Below, one piece after another: positions 6,434 through 28,410 of a stretch of DNA of 64,000 bases. The notes below the pieces were generated by a model. The model ran no database searches. It was not told the origin of the DNA and worked only from the letters and a program-made list of their open reading frames with translations. Position 1 is the stretch's first letter, and every line of letters starts with the position of its first letter. The translations under genes and the position numbers were made by a program. Origin of the DNA: Deltaproteobacteria bacterium (lineage in GTDB: Bacteria; Desulfobacterota; Syntrophia; Syntrophales; UBA8958); the NCBI GenBank assembly GCA_029553375.1, contig JAKPCH010000096.1, forward strand, positions 47,382 to 111,381, read 5' to 3'.

Positions 6434-6509
6434 TGGAGCCGATGGGCGGACTCGAACCGCCGGCCTAGTGATTACGAATCACTTGCTCTACCGGCTGAGC
6501 TACATCGGC
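6434..6509 (-). tRNA. tRNA-Thr (anticodon CGT), CCA encoded
   Basis: The reverse complement is GCCGATGTAGCTCAGCCGGTAGAGCAAGTGATTCGTAATCACTAGGCCGGCGGTTCGAGTCCGCCCATCGGCTCCA. It folds as a 76-nt cloverleaf: acceptor GCCGATG/CATCGGC, D stem GCTC/GAGC, anticodon stem AGTGA/TCACT with loop TTCGTAA, T stem GGCGG/CCGCC with loop TTCGAGT. Confidence 0.95.
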
Positions 6510-22259: not shown

Positions 22260-23897
22260 TTATTGGGTCATGACGAATCGTTGCTCCTCCCTCGGCACGT
22301 ACCACTTGATAAAATTATGGCTGATACCCTGCGGGGCCGGCTCCACGCCCCGGAAACGGGCGTGGATGATGGGAAGGGCGTCAGGGACGTAGAGGAAGAG
22401 ATAGGGCTGCTCCTCGGCGAGGATCTCCTGCACGCGATGGTAACAGCGCCGGCGCTCGTTTTGGTCGAAGGTGGCCCTGGCCCTCTCCAGGAGGGCGTCC
22501 ACCTCGGCGTTGCGAAAAGAGATGAAATTCAGTTCCTCGGGTCCCGTCTTGCTCGAATGCCACACATCGAAAATATCCGGATCCTGGGGTATGGACCACC
22601 CGAGGATCGTGGCGTCGAACCTCCGCTTGTTTATGAAGTCGTTGACGAAGGCCGCCCACTCGACGATGCGGATCTTGACCTTGATGCCCACCTCCGCCAG
22701 GCGTCTTTGAATGATCTCGGCGCACCTGGCCCTAACCTCGTTGCCCTGGTTGGTGATGATCTCGAAGGCGAAGGGTTGTCCGTCCTTGTCGAGGATGCCG
22801 TCCCCGTTCGTGTCCCGCCACCCGGCCTCCGCCAGGAGCCGCCTGGCTTGGGCGGGGTCGTAGGGGTACCTGCGGACGTCGGGATTGTAGGCCCACGTCC
22901 CCGGTTTATAGGGACCGGTGGCCTCTTTCCCGAGGCCCATCAAGACGCCCTCGAGGATCTCGTTCTTGTCGACGGCGTAGGCGATGGCCTGGCGGACCCG
23001 CCGGTCCGCGAAGAGGGGTTTCGTGAGGTTGTAGCCGAGATAGACGTAAGAGAAGGATAGATAACGGTATTTTCTGAAATTCTTCCGGAAGAGGTTGTTT
23101 TCCGTCTGACGACGGTACTGGAGGGGGGTCAGGCCCATCTGGTCTATCCCCCCCGCCCGGAGTTCGAGAAACATGGTGGCCGCATCGGGTATGATCCTCA
23201 TTACGTAACCGCTGATGTAGGGGGGACCCTCGAAATAGTCGGGATTGGCCGCAAGGACGATCTTCTGGCCCGTAACCCACTCCCGGAAACGATAGGGGCC
23301 CGTGCCGACGGGATGACGGGCGAGGGGCGAGGTGGTGATGTCCCTGCCCTCCAGGAGGTGACGGGGCAGGATGGCGCTGGTCCAGCTGGAGAGGGCGGGG
23401 GCGAAGGGGGCCCCGTAGGTCACGCGGAAGGTATGGTCGTCCACTACCTCCGCCTTCTTGATCTTGAGAAAATCCCCGGAATAGGGGGTGGGTGTCTTGG
23501 GGTCGACGGTGACCCGGTAGGTGTACAGGCAGTCATGGGCCGAAAAGGGCCGGCCGTCGTGCCAGCGGACATTCTTTCTCAGGTGGAAGGTGATCGTGAG
23601 GCCGTCTTTGGATATGTTCCATTTCTCCGCCAGGTCACCCACCAGCTGGAGATTCTTGTCGTATTTAACGAGGCCGTTGTACACGAGAGAGGCGATGAGG
23701 TGAGAGGTGCTGTCGGAGGCGAGGAGGGGGATGAGGTTGCTGGCGTCGCCGATGGAGCCCTCGACGATGATGTCCCCGTAGGCCGGGACGTCCGCCGAGG
23801 AAGGTCTCCCTTCCTTCTCGACGGTTCGGGAGCAGGAGAGCGCCCCCAGGGCCCATAGGGAGACCAGGAACAAACAAAGAATCCTCATCCCTTTCAT
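22260..23897 (-). CDS. ABC transporter substrate-binding protein, family 5 (peptide/nickel/glutathione type)
   Basis: Signal/lipoprotein-like N-terminus (MKGMRILCLFLVSLWALGALSC). Family-5 SBP pattern (LVKYDKNLQLVGDLAEKWNISKDGLTITFHLRKNVRWHDG). No cognate permease or ATPase genes are adjacent. Confidence 0.85.
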   Translation of the reverse strand: MKGMRILCLFLVSLWALGALSCSRTVEKEGRPSSADVPAYGDIIVEGSIGDASNLIPLLASDSTSHLIASLVYNGLVKYDKNLQLVGDLAEKWNISKDGLTITFHLRKNVRWHDGRPFSAHDCLYTYRVTVDPKTPTPYSGDFLKIKKAEVVDDHTFRVTYGAPFAPALSSWTSAILPRHLLEGRDITTSPLARHPVGTGPYRFREWVTGQKIVLAANPDYFEGPPYISGYVMRIIPDAATMFLELRAGGIDQMGLTPLQYRRQTENNLFRKNFRKYRYLSFSYVYLGYNLTKPLFADRRVRQAIAYAVDKNEILEGVLMGLGKEATGPYKPGTWAYNPDVRRYPYDPAQARRLLAEAGWRDTNGDGILDKDGQPFAFEIITNQGNEVRARCAEIIQRRLAEVGIKVKIRIVEWAAFVNDFINKRRFDATILGWSIPQDPDIFDVWHSSKTGPEELNFISFRNAEVDALLERARATFDQNERRRCYHRVQEILAEEQPYLFLYVPDALPIIHARFRGVEPAPQGISHNFIKWYVPREEQRFVMTQ

Positions 23898-24090
23898 CGG
23901 TTTGTCCGCGCCGCCTGCGTGTGCCATAACCCGTATCCGCCGCGGAATTCATCAGGAATCGGACCCGAAGTCAAGGTCATTTTGGGACGGGAAAGCAAGA
24001 GGCAAAACCCCCGCCCGCCGTCGCCGGGCCCGGGGGCAATGCGAACGGCCGACGAAACGACGAACCGTCGCGGGGGCACTGAAGTTTCTG

Positions 24091-24119
24091 TTGACAAAAG
24101 GGCGGAATCGTTCTATGAA
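24091..24119 (+). promoter_or_regulatory. candidate sigma70 promoter of the cimA leader (TTGACA-N17-TATGAA)
   Basis: TTGACA at 24091..24096 and TATGAA at 24114..24119. The predicted TSS lies just before the leader-peptide RBS GAGGAG (24125..24130). Confidence 0.55.
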
Positions 24120-24138
24120 CCCACGAGGAGAAAAGCTC

Positions 24139-24198
24139 ATGACCCGAAACACCGGCATCATTATCGGGAGGGGGATAATTATCAGGCCCGTCACATAG
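24139..24198 (+). CDS. isoleucine-rich leader peptide (MTRNTGIIIGRGIIIRPVT)
   Basis: 19 codons after a GAGGAG RBS. Six are Ile, in two runs of three (ATC ATT ATC ... ATA ATT ATC), including AT-rich codons in a GC-rich genome. The stop TAG sits in the loop of hairpin 1:2. Confidence 0.6.
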   Translation: MTRNTGIIIGRGIIIRPVT

Positions 24199-24242
24199 GG
24201 GCCTGGGGTGGGGAAATATCGTTTTTGCAAGTAAAACCGGAT

Positions 24243-24277
24243 CCGCTGTCAGGCCTTCCTGGCAGCGGATTTTTTTT
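24243..24277 (+). terminator. intrinsic terminator (attenuator) immediately upstream of cimA
   Basis: CCGCTGTCAGG (24243..24253), loop CCTT, CCTGGCAGCGG (24258..24268): an 11-bp stem with one G-U pair. It is followed by A and T8 (24270..24277). The cimA RBS GGAGGA follows at 24278..24283. Confidence 0.75.
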
Positions 24278-24287
24278 GGAGGATGAG

Positions 24288-25874
24288 ATGAGCCGTGAGA
24301 TCCTGATCTACGACACGACCCTCAGGGACGGCGCCCAGGGGGAACTGATCAATTTCACCGCCGAGGACAAGATAAGGATCGCCCGCCGTCTGGACGAGAT
24401 GGGGTTCCACTACATAGAGGGGGGCTGGCCCGGCTCGAACCCCAAGGACGTCAGATTCTTCGAAATGGCCAGAAAGATCGATTTCAAGAGGGCGAAGCTG
24501 GCGGCCTTCGGGAGCACCCGCCGGGCCGACGAGACGGTGGAGGGGAGTCATAACATCAAGGCCCTCCTCGATGCCGAAACGCCCGTGGTGACCGTCTTCG
24601 GTAAGACCTGGGATCTCCACGTGACGGAGATCCTCCAGGTATCCCTCGAGGAAAACCTGGCCATGGTAGGGGAAACCGTGTCCTACCTCAAAAGCAAGGG
24701 CAGGGAGGTGATCTACGACGCCGAGCACTTCTTCGACGGCTACAAGGCCGATCCCTCCTACGCCGGGAAAACGCTCCGGGAGGCCCTGGCGGCGGGGGCG
24801 GACATGATCGTCCTGTGCGACACGAACGGCGGGACCCTGCCCCACGAGGTCCAGGGTATCGTCGCGGAGGTGAAGAGGTTCATCCCCGCGGAGAAATTGG
24901 GCATTCACGCCCATAACGACGGGGGCCTGGGGGTCGCCAACACCCTTTGCGCCGTCATGGAAGGCGTGCGCATGGTCCAGGGGACGGTCAACGGTTACGG
25001 TGAGCGCTGCGGGAATGCCGACCTCGTTCCCGTCATCGCCAACCTCCAGCTGAAGATGGGGATCAATTGTCTTTCCCCCGAGGCCCTGACCCATCTCACC
25101 AATCTCTCCAATTACGTCGCTGACGTGGCCAATATGCCCCCCATCAATTCCCGGCCCTTCGTGGGGAGGAGCGCCTTCACCCACAAGGGGGGGGTGCACG
25201 TCAGCGCCGTGTTGAAAAACTCCCGGGCCTACGAGCACATAGACCCGAACCTGGTGGGGAACAAGCAGCGGGTGGTCGTTTCGGACCTGGCCGGCAAGAG
25301 CAATATCGAGTACAAGGCCCAGGAATTGGGTATCCCCCTGGGCGACGACAATGGGATCAGCCGCCGGATCGTCTCGGAGATCAAGAGGATGGAGGACGAG
25401 GGATATACCTTCGACGCCGCCGAGGGTTCCCTGGAGCTGTTGATCCGCAAGGGGGCCGGTGTCTTCAGGGACCCCTTCGTTCTGGAATGCTTCCAGGTCA
25501 TCTCCTCCAAGACGGCCCATCACCCCTCCCAGGCCCAGGCCATTATCAAGGTCTCCGTGGCGGGGGAGGAGGAGGTCACGGCGGCGGAGGGCAACGGCCC
25601 CATCAACGCCCTCGACAACGCCCTCAGGAAGGCCTTGCTGAAATTCTATCCGAAGATCAAGGAGATGCACCTGACGGACTTCAAGGTAAGAATCGTGGAG
25701 GGGAGCGAGGGGACGGCGGCTAAGGTCCAGGTGGCCATAGAATCCCGGGACGGTGATTGCTCGTGGAACACCATCGGCGTCTCGGAAAACGTCATCGAGG
25801 CCAGCTGGCTGGCCCTGGTGGACAGCATCAATTACAAGCTGGACAAAGACCAGCGGACGGCGGAACAAGGTTGA
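24288..25874 (+). CDS. cimA: (R)-citramalate synthase (IPMS/homocitrate synthase family, CimA type)
   Basis: Start at MSREILIYDTTLRDGAQGE (ATG 24288); the track ORF from 23919 reads through the leader and terminator. 528 aa. HYIEGGWPGSNPKD, YDAEHFFDGYKADPSYA, HAHNDGGLGVANT, and a C-terminal LeuA-dimer-like regulatory domain (AAEGNGPINALDNALRKAL). From memory it closely resembles the Geobacter-type CimA. Confidence 0.85.
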   Translation: MSREILIYDTTLRDGAQGELINFTAEDKIRIARRLDEMGFHYIEGGWPGSNPKDVRFFEMARKIDFKRAKLAAFGSTRRADETVEGSHNIKALLDAETPVVTVFGKTWDLHVTEILQVSLEENLAMVGETVSYLKSKGREVIYDAEHFFDGYKADPSYAGKTLREALAAGADMIVLCDTNGGTLPHEVQGIVAEVKRFIPAEKLGIHAHNDGGLGVANTLCAVMEGVRMVQGTVNGYGERCGNADLVPVIANLQLKMGINCLSPEALTHLTNLSNYVADVANMPPINSRPFVGRSAFTHKGGVHVSAVLKNSRAYEHIDPNLVGNKQRVVVSDLAGKSNIEYKAQELGIPLGDDNGISRRIVSEIKRMEDEGYTFDAAEGSLELLIRKGAGVFRDPFVLECFQVISSKTAHHPSQAQAIIKVSVAGEEEVTAAEGNGPINALDNALRKALLKFYPKIKEMHLTDFKVRIVEGSEGTAAKVQVAIESRDGDCSWNTIGVSENVIEASWLALVDSINYKLDKDQRTAEQG

Positions 25875-25916: not shown

Positions 25917-26525
25917 ATGCTGATCTCCATCAACAGTCAGAACCCCCAGGCGCGCCTCGTGAGGAAGGTCGTGGAATGCCTCCGTGACGGCGGCGTCATC
26001 ATCTACCCGACGGACACCGTCTACGGCCTGGGATGCGACCTCTTCAACAAGAAGGGCATCGAACGGATCTACGAGATCAAGAGGCGCAGCAAGAAACAGC
26101 CCCTGAGTTTCGTCTGCGCCGACCTCAAGGACATCAGCCGCTACGCCCAGGTGACGGATTTCGCGTACAAGACCATGCGCCGTTTCCTCCCCGGGCCCTA
26201 TACCTTCATCCTCCAGGCCTCGCGACTGGTACCGAAGATCATCCTCCCCAAGAGGGCGACCACGGGGATACGCGTCCCCGATCATCCCACCTGCCTGGCC
26301 ATCGTCGGCGAACTGGGGCAGCCGATCATCAGCACCAGTGTCAAGAACCGGGAGGGGGAGCTGATGAACGACCCGGCCCTCATCAAGGAACAGTTCGGAC
26401 ACTGTGTGGACATAATCATCGACGGCGGTATCATCCCCGCGGCCCCTTCCAGCGTCATCAGTCTCGTGGACGATCGCGTGGAGGTCATCAGGGTGGGCAA
26501 GGGGGACGTAAGCGCCTTTTCATGA
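25917..26525 (+). CDS. tsaC: L-threonylcarbamoyladenylate synthase (YrdC/TsaC type)
   Basis: VIIYPTDTVYGLGCDLFNKKGIERIYEIKRRSKKQPLSFV... ~202 aa with no Sua5 C-terminal domain. ATG 25917 is preferred over TTG 25881. Confidence 0.85.
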   Translation: MLISINSQNPQARLVRKVVECLRDGGVIIYPTDTVYGLGCDLFNKKGIERIYEIKRRSKKQPLSFVCADLKDISRYAQVTDFAYKTMRRFLPGPYTFILQASRLVPKIILPKRATTGIRVPDHPTCLAIVGELGQPIISTSVKNREGELMNDPALIKEQFGHCVDIIIDGGIIPAAPSSVISLVDDRVEVIRVGKGDVSAFS

Positions 26526-26541
26526 ACGAACAGGACAAGAC

Positions 26542-28410
26542 ATGAACAAAGTGATGCTGATCAACGCCGTTCACCCCGAGCAGAAACGGATGGCCATCGT
26601 GGAGAACGGCAAGCTCGTCGAGTACAACATCAGGATGGCCATGCGGGACCCCATCACGGGCAACATCTACAAAGGGGTCGTGATGAAGGTCGAAAGGGGC
26701 CTCCAGGCCGCCTTCGTCAATTACGGGGGCAAGAAGGACGGTTTCTTGCCCCTGAGGGACGTGAGCCCGGAATACTACGCCGAAGGCCACGACGAGGGCG
26801 GGTCCTCGCCGGGGGAGAAAAGAACGCGACCTTCCCTGAAGGTGGGCCAGGAGGTGGTGGTCCAGGTACTGAGGGAGGTGAGCGAGAGGAAGGGGGCCCT
26901 CCTGACGACCTACATCTCCCTGCCGGGGCGTTACCTGGTGCTGATGCCCAACAAGAGCGGTTGCGGCATCTCCCGCAAGATCGAAGACGAGGAGGACCGC
27001 CGCCGTCTGAAGGAAATCATGGGCCAGATCCGCGTGGAAGAGGGGATGGGTTTTATCATTCGGACGGCGGGCCTCAACCGGACGAAGCAGGAGTTGAACC
27101 GGGACTACCAACACCTCTTTCGCCTGTGGAAGGAGATCAAGAAAGAGATCCAGACCGTTCCGGCCCCGGCCCTGGTGTACCAGGAGAGCGATTTCGGCGT
27201 CTGCTCCCTGAGGGATTATTTCACGACGGATATCGAGGAGGTCTGGGTCGACGACCTCGAGACCTTCCGGAAGATGCGGGCCTACTGCAAGACCGTCAGC
27301 CCGAGAAATCTCAAGATCATCAAGCATTACAAGGAAAAAACGCCCCTTTTCGACAGGTACAACCTCGAGGACCAAATCAGGGTCATCTATCAGGAGAGGG
27401 TGGACCTGAAATCGGGCGGCTACCTGATCATCAACCCCACGGAGGCCATGATCACCATCGACGTCAACTCGGGGCGGGCCTCGAACAAGAGAAACGTGGA
27501 GGAGACGGCCTTTCGGACCAATCTCGAGGCGGCGGAAGAGATCGCGCGCCAGCTGAGGCTCCGGGACCTCGGCGGGTTGATCGTCATCGATTTCATCGAC
27601 ATGGTGGACCGGCAGCACCAGCTCGAGGTGGAGAAGACCTTCAAGAAGGCCATGAGCGTCGACCGGGCCCGGGTTCAGATGTCGAGGATCTCGAAGTTCG
27701 GGATCCTCGAGCTGTCGAGGCAGAAGAAGCAGTCCACGATCCAGGAGATCAGCTACACGACGTGCCCCTACTGCAAGGGGGCGGGGTTGCGGCCGTCGCT
27801 GGAATACACGGCCCTGAGCGCCTTCAGGAAGATCGAGTCCCAGGCGGTGAAGGGCGACTACTCCCACCTGAAGGTCACCTTGCCCTACGAGGTGGCGGAC
27901 TACCTGCTGAATCAGAAAAGGCAGGAGCTGGGTCGCCTCGAGTATGACTACGAGATGACCATCCATATCACCGGCGCGGCCGACATGCCCTGGGACGAGA
28001 CGCGTATCGAGAGCCGGAAACGGGAGGTGATCCGGGATTCGGCCCCGGAAGGGGAGAAAGAGGGCGAGCAGATCCCCGCCCCGAAGGGTCAGGTTGATAA
28101 GGGCCCCGGGGCCCTCGAGGCGCCGAGGCACGTCCAGGAAGCCAAACCGGCTCCGGGGGAGGAGACGGACGCCCCGCCCCCCGAGGCGGCCAAGAAGAAG
28201 GGCCGGCGCCGCTCCCGCCACCGCCGCAAAAAGACGGCCGCAGTGGAGCCCTCGGCGCAGGAGCAGGAGAACCCGCCGCCGGAAACGGCGAAGGGGGAGG
28301 GGCCGGCGCCGACACCCCCCGAGACCGCGACCGAGAAGCCCCGTCGCGGCCGCTCGAGGAGATCGGGGGCGAGGAAAAAAGCTGAGGTCAGGGCGGGGGA
28401 AGAGGTATAG
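26542..28410 (+). CDS. rng: ribonuclease E/G family protein with basic Pro/Ala/Glu-rich C-terminal tail
   Basis: S1 domain (NIYKGVVMKVERGLQAAFVNYGGKKDGFLPL), catalytic core (ITIDVNSG...LRDLGGLIVIDFIDM) and the Zn-link CPYCKGAG. The last ~130 aa are low complexity. Confidence 0.85.
   Translation: MNKVMLINAVHPEQKRMAIVENGKLVEYNIRMAMRDPITGNIYKGVVMKVERGLQAAFVNYGGKKDGFLPLRDVSPEYYAEGHDEGGSSPGEKRTRPSLKVGQEVVVQVLREVSERKGALLTTYISLPGRYLVLMPNKSGCGISRKIEDEEDRRRLKEIMGQIRVEEGMGFIIRTAGLNRTKQELNRDYQHLFRLWKEIKKEIQTVPAPALVYQESDFGVCSLRDYFTTDIEEVWVDDLETFRKMRAYCKTVSPRNLKIIKHYKEKTPLFDRYNLEDQIRVIYQERVDLKSGGYLIINPTEAMITIDVNSGRASNKRNVEETAFRTNLEAAEEIARQLRLRDLGGLIVIDFIDMVDRQHQLEVEKTFKKAMSVDRARVQMSRISKFGILELSRQKKQSTIQEISYTTCPYCKGAGLRPSLEYTALSAFRKIESQAVKGDYSHLKVTLPYEVADYLLNQKRQELGRLEYDYEMTIHITGAADMPWDETRIESRKREVIRDSAPEGEKEGEQIPAPKGQVDKGPGALEAPRHVQEAKPAPGEETDAPPPEAAKKKGRRRSRHRRKKTAAVEPSAQEQENPPPETAKGEGPAPTPPETATEKPRRGRSRRSGARKKAEVRAGEEV

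Follow-up and report, generated by a model that had tools for sequence, protein, structure and literature searches.

The question raised by the locus described here is how transcription reaches a gene that is separated from its promoter by a short isoleucine-rich open reading frame (ORF) and an intrinsic terminator. The gene is cimA, which encodes (R)-citramalate synthase, the enzyme that opens the threonine-independent isoleucine route used by many anaerobes, and it lies in a 64-kb stretch of Syntrophales DNA, the whole of which is called the window in what follows. A sequence-only reading of this DNA had proposed leader-peptide attenuation, the type of control that is known from the ilv and leu leaders as well as from the his and trp leaders. 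The elements present in the window, RNA folding and 27 other loci with differing leaders support that proposal, and it is very probable that the element is an isoleucine-responsive, ribosome-mediated (leader-peptide) transcription attenuator which controls cimA.

According to this mechanism, transcription would begin some 13 nt 5' of a 19-codon leader that has six Ile codons in two blocks. With Ile-tRNA plentiful, the ribosome would reach the TAG codon (24196-24198) and, on the assumption that it shields about 13-15 nt 3' of its P site, as ribosomes usually do, it would cover the core of segment 2, which extends from position 24199 onward; if the leader were left untranslated, segment 2 would be paired by segment 1. 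Either of those states would allow a 15-bp terminator with its U8 tract to form, and transcription would halt 10 nt before cimA. With Ile-tRNA scarce, the ribosome would stall at the second Ile block (24175-24183), and with Ile13-15 in its A site it would cover segment 1 and leave segment 2 free to pair with the left arm of the terminator (24242-24256) as this arm emerges. The terminator would then be blocked, and RNA polymerase would continue into cimA. The elements involved are listed in Table 1.

Table 1 Elements of the cimA leader region and their positions in the window
Feature	Positions	Strand	Remarks
-35 hexamer TTGACA	24091-24096	+	read directly; perfect match
-10 hexamer TATGAA	24114-24119	+	17-nt spacer after -35; imperfect, final T absent
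Leader Shine-Dalgarno sequence GAGGAG	24125-24130	+	8 nt 5' of ATG at 24139
Leader ORF MTRNTGIIIGRGIIIRPVT, 19 codons + TAG	24139-24198	+	read directly
Regulatory codon block 1, ATC ATT ATC (Ile7-9)	24157-24165	+	
Regulatory codon block 2, ATA ATT ATC (Ile13-15)	24175-24183	+	last codon overlaps segment 1
Segment 1, UCAGGCCC	24182-24189	+	in minimum-free-energy fold; pairs with 24199-24206
Segment 2, GGGCCUGGGGUGGG	24199-24212	+	directly 3' of leader stop; partners are segment 1 or 24242-24256
Segment 3	24242-24256	+	terminator left arm and three loop bases
Intrinsic terminator	24239-24277	+	stem 24239-24253 / 24258-24272, loop CCUU, U8 at 24270-24277
cimA Shine-Dalgarno sequence GGAGGA	24278-24283	+	abuts U-run; 4 nt 5' of ATG
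cimA, (R)-citramalate synthase, 528 amino acids	24288-25874	+	TIGR00977

The promoter (TTGACA-N17-TATGAA, 24091-24119), the ribosome-binding site followed by a 19-codon leader with six Ile codons, ATA and ATT among them, and the three heptamers assigned to segments 1, 2 and 3 (CAGGCCC at 24183-24189, GGGCCTG at 24199-24205 and CAGGCCT at 24250-24256), all of which the sequence-only reading had named, are indeed present. The leader reads ATG ACC CGA AAC ACC GGC ATC ATT ATC GGG AGG GGG ATA ATT ATC AGG CCC GTC ACA TAG. Judged from promoter evidence at the consensus level, the transcription start would be near 24126; the promoter is absent from the list of a consensus scan that demands a T at position 6 of the -10 hexamer. 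Downstream, the U-run of the terminator stops 10 nt before the ATG of cimA, and since no promoter fits in this gap, cimA can be expressed only by read-through. The gene 5' of the leader (22260-23927), which encodes a peptide ABC-transporter substrate-binding protein, runs on the minus strand and so cannot be the gene that this terminator serves.

The isoleucine content of the leader is exceptional within the window. Isoleucine accounts for 6 of its 19 codons, as against 4.4% of the codons in the long ORFs of the window, and with three ATC, two ATT and one ATA, half of its Ile codons are ATA or ATT. In four confirmed genes of the window, ATA and ATT together make up about 12% of the Ile codons and ATC 88%. 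When all small ORFs were ranked for Ile density (8-60 codons, distinct stops, six frames; n=781), the leader came first, with six Ile within nine codons; the next densest, an ORF with five Ile, lies inside a tsaC-like gene.

The 166-nt leader RNA folds with -59.5 kcal/mol (z = -2.7 as compared to dinucleotide shuffles), and both the hairpin formed by segments 1 and 2 (the 1:2 hairpin) and the terminator occur in its minimum-free-energy and centroid structures. Helices of 7 bp (1:2), 7 bp (2:3) and 11 bp (terminator) had been predicted for this region; folding gives greater lengths for all three. The 1:2 hairpin has 8 bp (24182-24189 with 24199-24206, -15.1 kcal/mol), and the terminator, which is followed by T8 and the cimA ribosome-binding site as expected, has a stem of 13-15 bp (15 pairs, 8 of them G-C, at 24239-24272 in a consensus scan; -25.1 kcal/mol). 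The antiterminator is really a duplex of 14 bp between 24199-24212 and 24242-24256 (-18.9 kcal/mol), with G24248 bulged and 24207-24212 paired with 24242-24247 past the bulge. It ties up 12 of the 15 nt of the terminator left arm, which makes the two structures mutually exclusive, and it is equalled by 7 of 300 shuffles. The 7-bp antiterminator was rejected as insufficient on its own: it has only -9.9 kcal/mol and reaches no further into the terminator than its loop and uppermost 4 bp.

Equilibrium folds under ribosome masks were replaced by folds of truncated nascent RNA, in which the removal of segment 1 mimics a ribosome stalled at Ile13-15. With the 3' end at 24257, 24261 or 24265, such RNA adopts the antiterminator fold (-20.7 to -22.2 kcal/mol); completion of the right arm makes the terminator the most stable structure. 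The folding check that the sequence-only reading had put forward yields both structures, the antiterminator in truncated nascent RNA and the terminator in the full RNA.

For comparison, 169 distinct cimA loci were collected, 80 from GTDB representative genomes, 80 from metagenomes and 9 around the closest CimA homologues (68-79% identity), and the 450 nt upstream of each cimA were scanned for mini-ORFs. A divergent Ile-rich mini-ORF together with a homologous terminator was found at 27 other loci (CimA about 58-79% identical), which gives 28 loci with the window included. The labelled members are Syntrophales, Smithella, Syntrophus, Desulfatiglandales and other Thermodesulfobacteriota metagenome-assembled genomes (MAGs), and Ile-run mini-ORFs are present in every close relative. 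The leader peptides are illustrated by MKYVTRIAIIIGAIIRPTYIRA (L161, CimA 79% identical), MHFTSLNAIIGIIIIGIIRPEDTGA, MNGRKLNTIVGIIIIIGIIRPENTGA and MINAAQATIIAIIIIDRDIRGLAVV (L165, L166 and L163, each 75%), MKSSIGIIIPIIIDIIGIRPGGVGG (L081, 69%), MNADATAMISIGIIIRPEDTGGLMMR (L167, a Syntrophus MAG), MNTIIIRKIIISNIIISFSIGGLVAE (L168, Smithella) and, as an example of a group with longer leaders, MNFIVNNIIVIICATGVLVSLLLSLLVVRPTIPDLIMT (L006, a Desulfatiglandales MAG). In other phyla cimA mostly follows directly after an aspartokinase gene and has no leader. Many Ile-rich ORFs upstream of cimA in those phyla turned out to be the aspartokinase C-terminus (MISTSEIKIS...) and were discarded, and locus L043 (a BRC1 MAG), which has an Ile-containing mini-ORF, was not counted as a member since it lacks a homologous terminator.

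The terminator of all 28 loci conforms to the consensus AAUCCGUUAUCAGG-loop-CCUGAUAACGGAUU, followed by 5-10 U, and ends 11-30 nt before the cimA start in most relatives. A regular expression for the hairpin matches 24 of the 28 loci, once each and always 5' of cimA, and nowhere else in 1.1 Mb; the remaining loci (L090, L167, L168 and L169) deviate slightly from it. A covariance model (R1) built from 25 loci, with L167-L169 held out, finds the element in the window at 24195-24276 with 61.2 bits as its sole match on the + strand, and recovers the held-out loci with 46.9-56.8 bits (E ~1e-7 to 1e-9). Upstream of cimA in the other ~140 loci R1 gave no match, and neither the regular expression nor the covariance model detected a second copy of the element in the window or in the loci. 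The family terminator also has an A-run before and a U-run after the hairpin, so that it reads as a terminator on the opposite strand too; R1 scores 25-50 bits on the minus strand, for example at L006:308-387, L086:236-312 and L085:2442-2546, and where the gene on the 5' side runs towards it, the hairpin may terminate transcription in both directions. In the window the stem lacks the A-run and is preceded by CCGG.

Both alternative helices that involve the terminator left arm covary in the MAFFT alignment on which they were scored (A1). For the terminator (3:4), 98.3% of the cells are paired and 7 of 14 pairs are compensatory (0/500 shuffles; slid controls 22-48%), and for the antiterminator (2:3) these values are 90.1% and 5 of 13 pairs (0/500 shuffles; slid controls 18-46%). 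The family consensus of segment 2, GGCCUGAUAAUGG, to which the GGGCCUGGGGUGGG of the window is homologous, pairs with the terminator left arm and loop in each of the 25 loci (-13 to -29 kcal/mol), and in each of them the 2:3 duplex beats the mean of the dinucleotide shuffles (median z = -4.0), with at most 20 of 300 shuffles per locus reaching it. Conserved Ile-run mini-ORFs and covarying stems (2:3 and 3:4), for which the sequence-only reading had suggested to align related genomes, are thus both found in relatives. A perfect TTGACA occurs within 110 nt 5' of the leader ORF in 23 of the 25 loci, and a hexamer that nearly always begins with TA follows it after 16-18 nt, mostly 17. In the window, segment 2 is G-rich (GGGGUGGGG) as compared to GAUAAUGG in relatives, and the terminator arm has changed to match (GCUGUCAGG / CCUGGCAGC).

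That the stop codon is placed such that a terminating ribosome would mask segment 2, as had been proposed for the window, agrees with the analysed loci: in 25 of 25, segment 2 overlaps or abuts the leader stop. In most relatives with a short leader the stop is a UGA within segment 2 (GGCCUGA), and in the long leaders it is located 1-2 codons past segment 2. The window is without that UGA (CCUGG) and has a TAG just 5' of segment 2 instead (24196-24212 as compared to A1 columns 18-41).

These comparative data also bear on the idea that ORF, hairpin and T-run occur together by chance. Nothing speaks for it except the general frequency of hairpins and short ORFs, whereas the arrangement recurs with covariation in 28 loci, the leader ranks first among 781 ORFs for Ile density and loci that were held out still match the covariance model; a chance origin is effectively refuted. 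The leader ORFs were picked for their Ile runs, with the terminator motif as an independent anchor, and every locus with the terminator motif has an Ile-rich ORF.

The codons themselves suggest that the leaders are read as such. Over 25 leaders, 174 ATH trinucleotides are in the leader frame as compared to 18 and 13 in the other two (85% in one frame), and Ile makes up 24% of the residues, or 33% in the short leaders. Furthermore, the leader codon repertoire follows the operon: Ile with cimA alone, Ile and Leu with cimA-leuA, and Ile and Val with cimA-ilvD. A Leu run, defined as at least five L in seven codons, is found in eight loci for which downstream sequence is available (L003-L007, L085, L087 and L089), and in all eight the next gene is leuA (2-isopropylmalate synthase). 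Among the loci with Ile-only leaders, i.e. the window and 13 relatives, leuA is absent in 13 of 14, the exception being L036, and a tsaC-like gene follows where annotated (window, L161-L169). Both leaders with Ile and Val runs (L009 and L090) have ilvD as the next gene. A Fisher test with all loci below five Leu in seven codons pooled (8, 0 / 3, 15) gives p ~1e-4, a value that is indicative only, since the loci are phylogenetically non-independent. The match between leader codons and operon provides a comparative case of leader peptides that have been re-tuned over evolution.

Two further RNA structures were noticed in the loci with leuA or long leaders. Where leuA follows, a GC-rich hairpin (approximately GCCGCAGAUUCC...GGAAUCUGCGGCGGGUCCUU) is located just after cimA or at its 3' end, with 14 predicted pairs, 7 of them compensatory, and no U-run (L003:2054-2113, L004:2034-2093, L005:4607-4666, L006:1979-2038, L007:4609-4668, L085:4189-4248, L087:4109-4168, L089:4185-4244 and L091:4104-4163). 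It is absent from the window and has no Rfam match in L004 or L006 at E <= 1; it could play a part in RNA processing or stability, or be a second site at which leuA is regulated. The long leaders have a conserved internal hairpin, GCAACAGGGAUACUUGUAUCCUUGUUGC, which encodes ...ATGILVSLLL... between the Ile run and the Leu run (L004:211-385, L005:2795-2980, L006:162-348 and L087:2291-2477) and which may act as a pause hairpin or as a further element of the switch.

With 33-41 codons and an abundance of I, L and V, the long leaders look like single-pass membrane peptides, and on this basis the mini-ORF might be taken for an independent gene for a small hydrophobic peptide that has its own terminator and is linked to cimA by position only. 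This is extremely unlikely, as the composition of the peptide is conserved and its sequence is not, cimA can be transcribed only through the element, and the element is found solely 5' of cimA in 1.1 Mb. Moreover, the C-terminal swaps (LIM, LVM, LMM) change the residue but keep A-U or G-U pairing.

The origin of the RNA conservation can be traced to the regulatory codons. In per-sequence folds, segment 2 (GAUAAUGG or GAUGAUGG) folds back onto the Ile codons in most relatives, with CCAUUAUC, CAUCAUC and AUUAUCAGGCC as examples of its partners. Segment 1 consists of these same regulatory codons, and complementarity consequently forces segment 2 to be approximately CCUGAUAAU, segment 3 approximately UUAUCAGG and segment 4 approximately CCUGAUAA. 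The conserved peptide ends (IIRP; GLIMT, GLVMA, GLMMT), in which I/V/M substitutions alter the residue and retain A-U or G-U pairs, are then by-products of RNA complementarity.

This is important for the evaluation of another explanation, in which antitermination is independent of translation and the ORF is incidental: the choice between the two structures would be made by a protein or small ligand bound to the conserved CCGUUAUCAGG / CCUGAUAACGG hairpin or to the GGCCUGAUAAUGG segment. The terminator and segment 2 are unusually conserved even though CimA is only 58-79% identical, which is typical of binding-site RNAs. However, an Ile-codon segment 1 (AUU AUC) and the complementarity of segments 2, 3 and 4 to it explain the conservation more simply, which counts against a protein-binding site as its cause. 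The number of Ile codons is also far beyond what pairing needs, with most ATH trinucleotides in a single open frame that has a start and a stop, and a binding site does not account for a codon repertoire that shifts to Leu with leuA and to Val with ilvD. A search of Rfam 15 with the region 23000-25500 at E <= 10 yielded only chance-level microRNA and small nucleolar RNA matches (E 1.2-10), none of which overlaps 24091-24287, and no riboswitch or T-box. We regard control by such a protein or ligand as very unlikely. In eight relatives searched at E <= 1 no Rfam family was found, the only hits being weak matches to the terminator hairpin, and the amino-acid operon leader families of Rfam were rejected on the basis of these scans.

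Ribosome-mediated attenuation remains the preferred explanation, and a number of points weigh against it. Equilibrium folds of the full leader give the terminator under every ribosome mask, and because the terminator is always favoured at equilibrium the model depends, like attenuators in general, on co-transcriptional kinetics; in the masked folds, a ribosome stalled on the first Ile block (24157-24165) falls short of segment 1. The 1:2 helix is the weakest element, with a duplex score that is reached by 32 of 300 shuffles in the window, a family median z of -1.5 and five loci that lack convincing 1:2 pairing. Column-wise covariation of this helix was dropped as MAFFT loses the register of segment 1, which is due to the fact that different Ile blocks act as segment 1 in different loci. 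The codon-operon match has its exceptions in L001, L036 and L091, which have leuA downstream yet few Leu codons in the leader (in L001 and L091, a few scattered ones). The canonical last T is missing from the -10 hexamer TATGAA, and the 5' untranslated region that this hexamer implies would be only about 13 nt long; transcription start, translation of the leader and response to isoleucine are what we infer from the sequence. Finally, in Streptomyces coelicolor the leaders of ilvB and leuA resemble attenuators but behaved in a non-classical way when their regulatory codons were mutated (summarised in PMC1262725).

The Streptomyces leaders (PMC1262725) and the equilibrium folds, together with the fact that the U-run adjoins the cimA Shine-Dalgarno sequence, could also be reconciled with a leader that works at another level, such as mRNA stability, Rho-dependent polarity, or translational coupling or reinitiation at that sequence, with a hairpin that acts constitutively as a partial terminator or as a stabiliser and does not respond to Ile. 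Such a leader would have no role for the conserved, covarying pairing of the stop-codon segment with the terminator left arm, and the distance of 89 nt from the leader stop to the cimA start is too long for coupling. Control at another level is therefore quite unlikely.

It is well supported by the sequence comparisons that the element represents an uncatalogued family of elements 5' of cimA, present in Syntrophales and related Thermodesulfobacteriota, that would use a familiar attenuation mechanism. We are further inclined to believe, with less confidence, that this is a modular attenuator family of the Thermodesulfobacteriota in which a constant scaffold of Ile-codon repeats (AUUAUCAGG / CCUGAUAAU) is combined with a codon cassette that is re-tuned per operon. 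If so, syntrophic Syntrophales would make isoleucine probably mainly by the citramalate route, and this would be the route that they regulate at the level of transcription. The element would mark cimA as the regulated committed step in these organisms and gives a testable Ile-specific signal for cimA control in Syntrophales and relatives, and the covariance model and consensus could be used to annotate cimA regulation in digester and sediment metagenomes. The mechanism itself is ordinary and would not surprise a specialist in attenuation.

Closely similar logic is known from the ilvGMEDA (ilvL) and ilvBN (ivbL) operons of Escherichia coli and Salmonella, in which a promoter-proximal mini-ORF with branched-chain codons is followed by mutually exclusive 1:2, 2:3 and 3:4 helices and a terminator. 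The window has the same arrangement of leader ORF, exclusive helices and terminator before the first gene, but its leader is of the Ile-only type, in contrast to the mixture of Ile, Leu and Val codons in ilvL; control would be exerted on cimA, which codes for the entry enzyme of the threonine-independent route; the host belongs to the Syntrophales (Thermodesulfobacteriota); and there is neither sequence similarity nor an Rfam match. Another relevant example is leuL of Enterobacteria, where four Leu codons and then a terminator precede leuA. In both cases a run of end-product codons and a terminator would control a committed-step enzyme, the two enzymes being paralogous (LeuA, CimA superfamily), with four Leu codons in leuL as compared to six Ile codons in two blocks in the window; in the cimA-leuA relatives, unlike in leuL, a single leader holds both Ile and Leu runs. 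A leu-leader model is presumably included in Rfam. The CimA of Leptospira interrogans is reportedly subject to allosteric feedback inhibition by isoleucine. This would follow the same physiological logic, with isoleucine limiting the first committed citramalate step, but the control would be exerted on the enzyme via the C-terminal LeuA_dimer domain. The CimA of the window keeps this regulatory domain (PF08502), and the leader would add control at the level of transcription.

RNA-level antitermination that senses tRNA charging is also found in Geobacter, likewise of the former Deltaproteobacteria, in which leuA, a gene of the LeuA/CimA family, is under a Leu-specific T-box and no cimA element is listed (PMC2700814). 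A T-box binds uncharged tRNA directly and involves no ribosome, and in Geobacter-type loci cimA follows an aspartokinase gene and has no leader. A T-box riboswitch was rejected as a candidate for the window element, as no match was obtained in 23000-25500 (E <= 10), in the whole window (gathering threshold) or in eight family loci (E <= 1). At the gathering threshold Rfam found nothing, T-box included, in 19 leaderless cimA loci, among them those of Paenibacillus, Desulfobacterales and a Desulfuromonadales MAG labelled geobacteraceae, so that these loci offered no other sensor for comparison. Isoleucine-leucine-valine (ILV) attenuators are not mentioned in the 2004 reconstruction of delta-proteobacterial regulons (PMC545781). 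In Actinobacteria, candidate ILV leader peptides with terminators have been predicted upstream of ilvB by comparative genomics, as short ORFs with runs of Ile, Val and Leu codons that overlap terminator hairpins; these are without a clear antiterminator, and in S. coelicolor mutation of the regulatory codons had no effect (PMC1262725), whereas here a covarying antiterminator is combined with codon content that tracks the operon. No description of a cimA leader or attenuator was found in the searchable literature, outside the scope of which fall the broad surveys of Vitreschak et al. (2004) and Lopatovskaya et al. (2010), and it is possible that the element was listed there earlier under a 'leuA' annotation.

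The assignment of the controlled gene is clear. In a profile search, CimA of the window scores 768.8 bits with TIGR00977 (cut-off 450), whereas all LeuA (2-isopropylmalate synthase) models stay below their own cut-offs, the best with 293 as compared to 517. This CimA shares 100% identity with 'MAG TPA: citramalate synthase [Syntrophales bacterium]', which is present on many contigs, and on four contigs with that CimA the 260 nt 5' of cimA are the same as in the window.

In the closest relatives the gene upstream of the leader varies, and the order cimA, tsaC-like gene (25917-26525 in the window; L-threonylcarbamoyladenylate synthase family, TIGR00057) and RNase E/G gene (26542-28410) is kept. 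On the + strand from cimA to position 27000 a terminator-like site was looked for and none was found; a promoter-like site is located at 26407-26434, within the 3' end of the tsaC-like gene. The window has thrC (threonine synthase, TIGR00260; 19992-21386, + strand) two genes 5' of the leader, as have L164 and L166; threonine is the substrate of the alternative, IlvA-dependent isoleucine route. At some distance, a tRNA gene at 6437-6509 on the minus strand (RF00005, 72.8 bits) is the only gathering-level Rfam match in the whole window.

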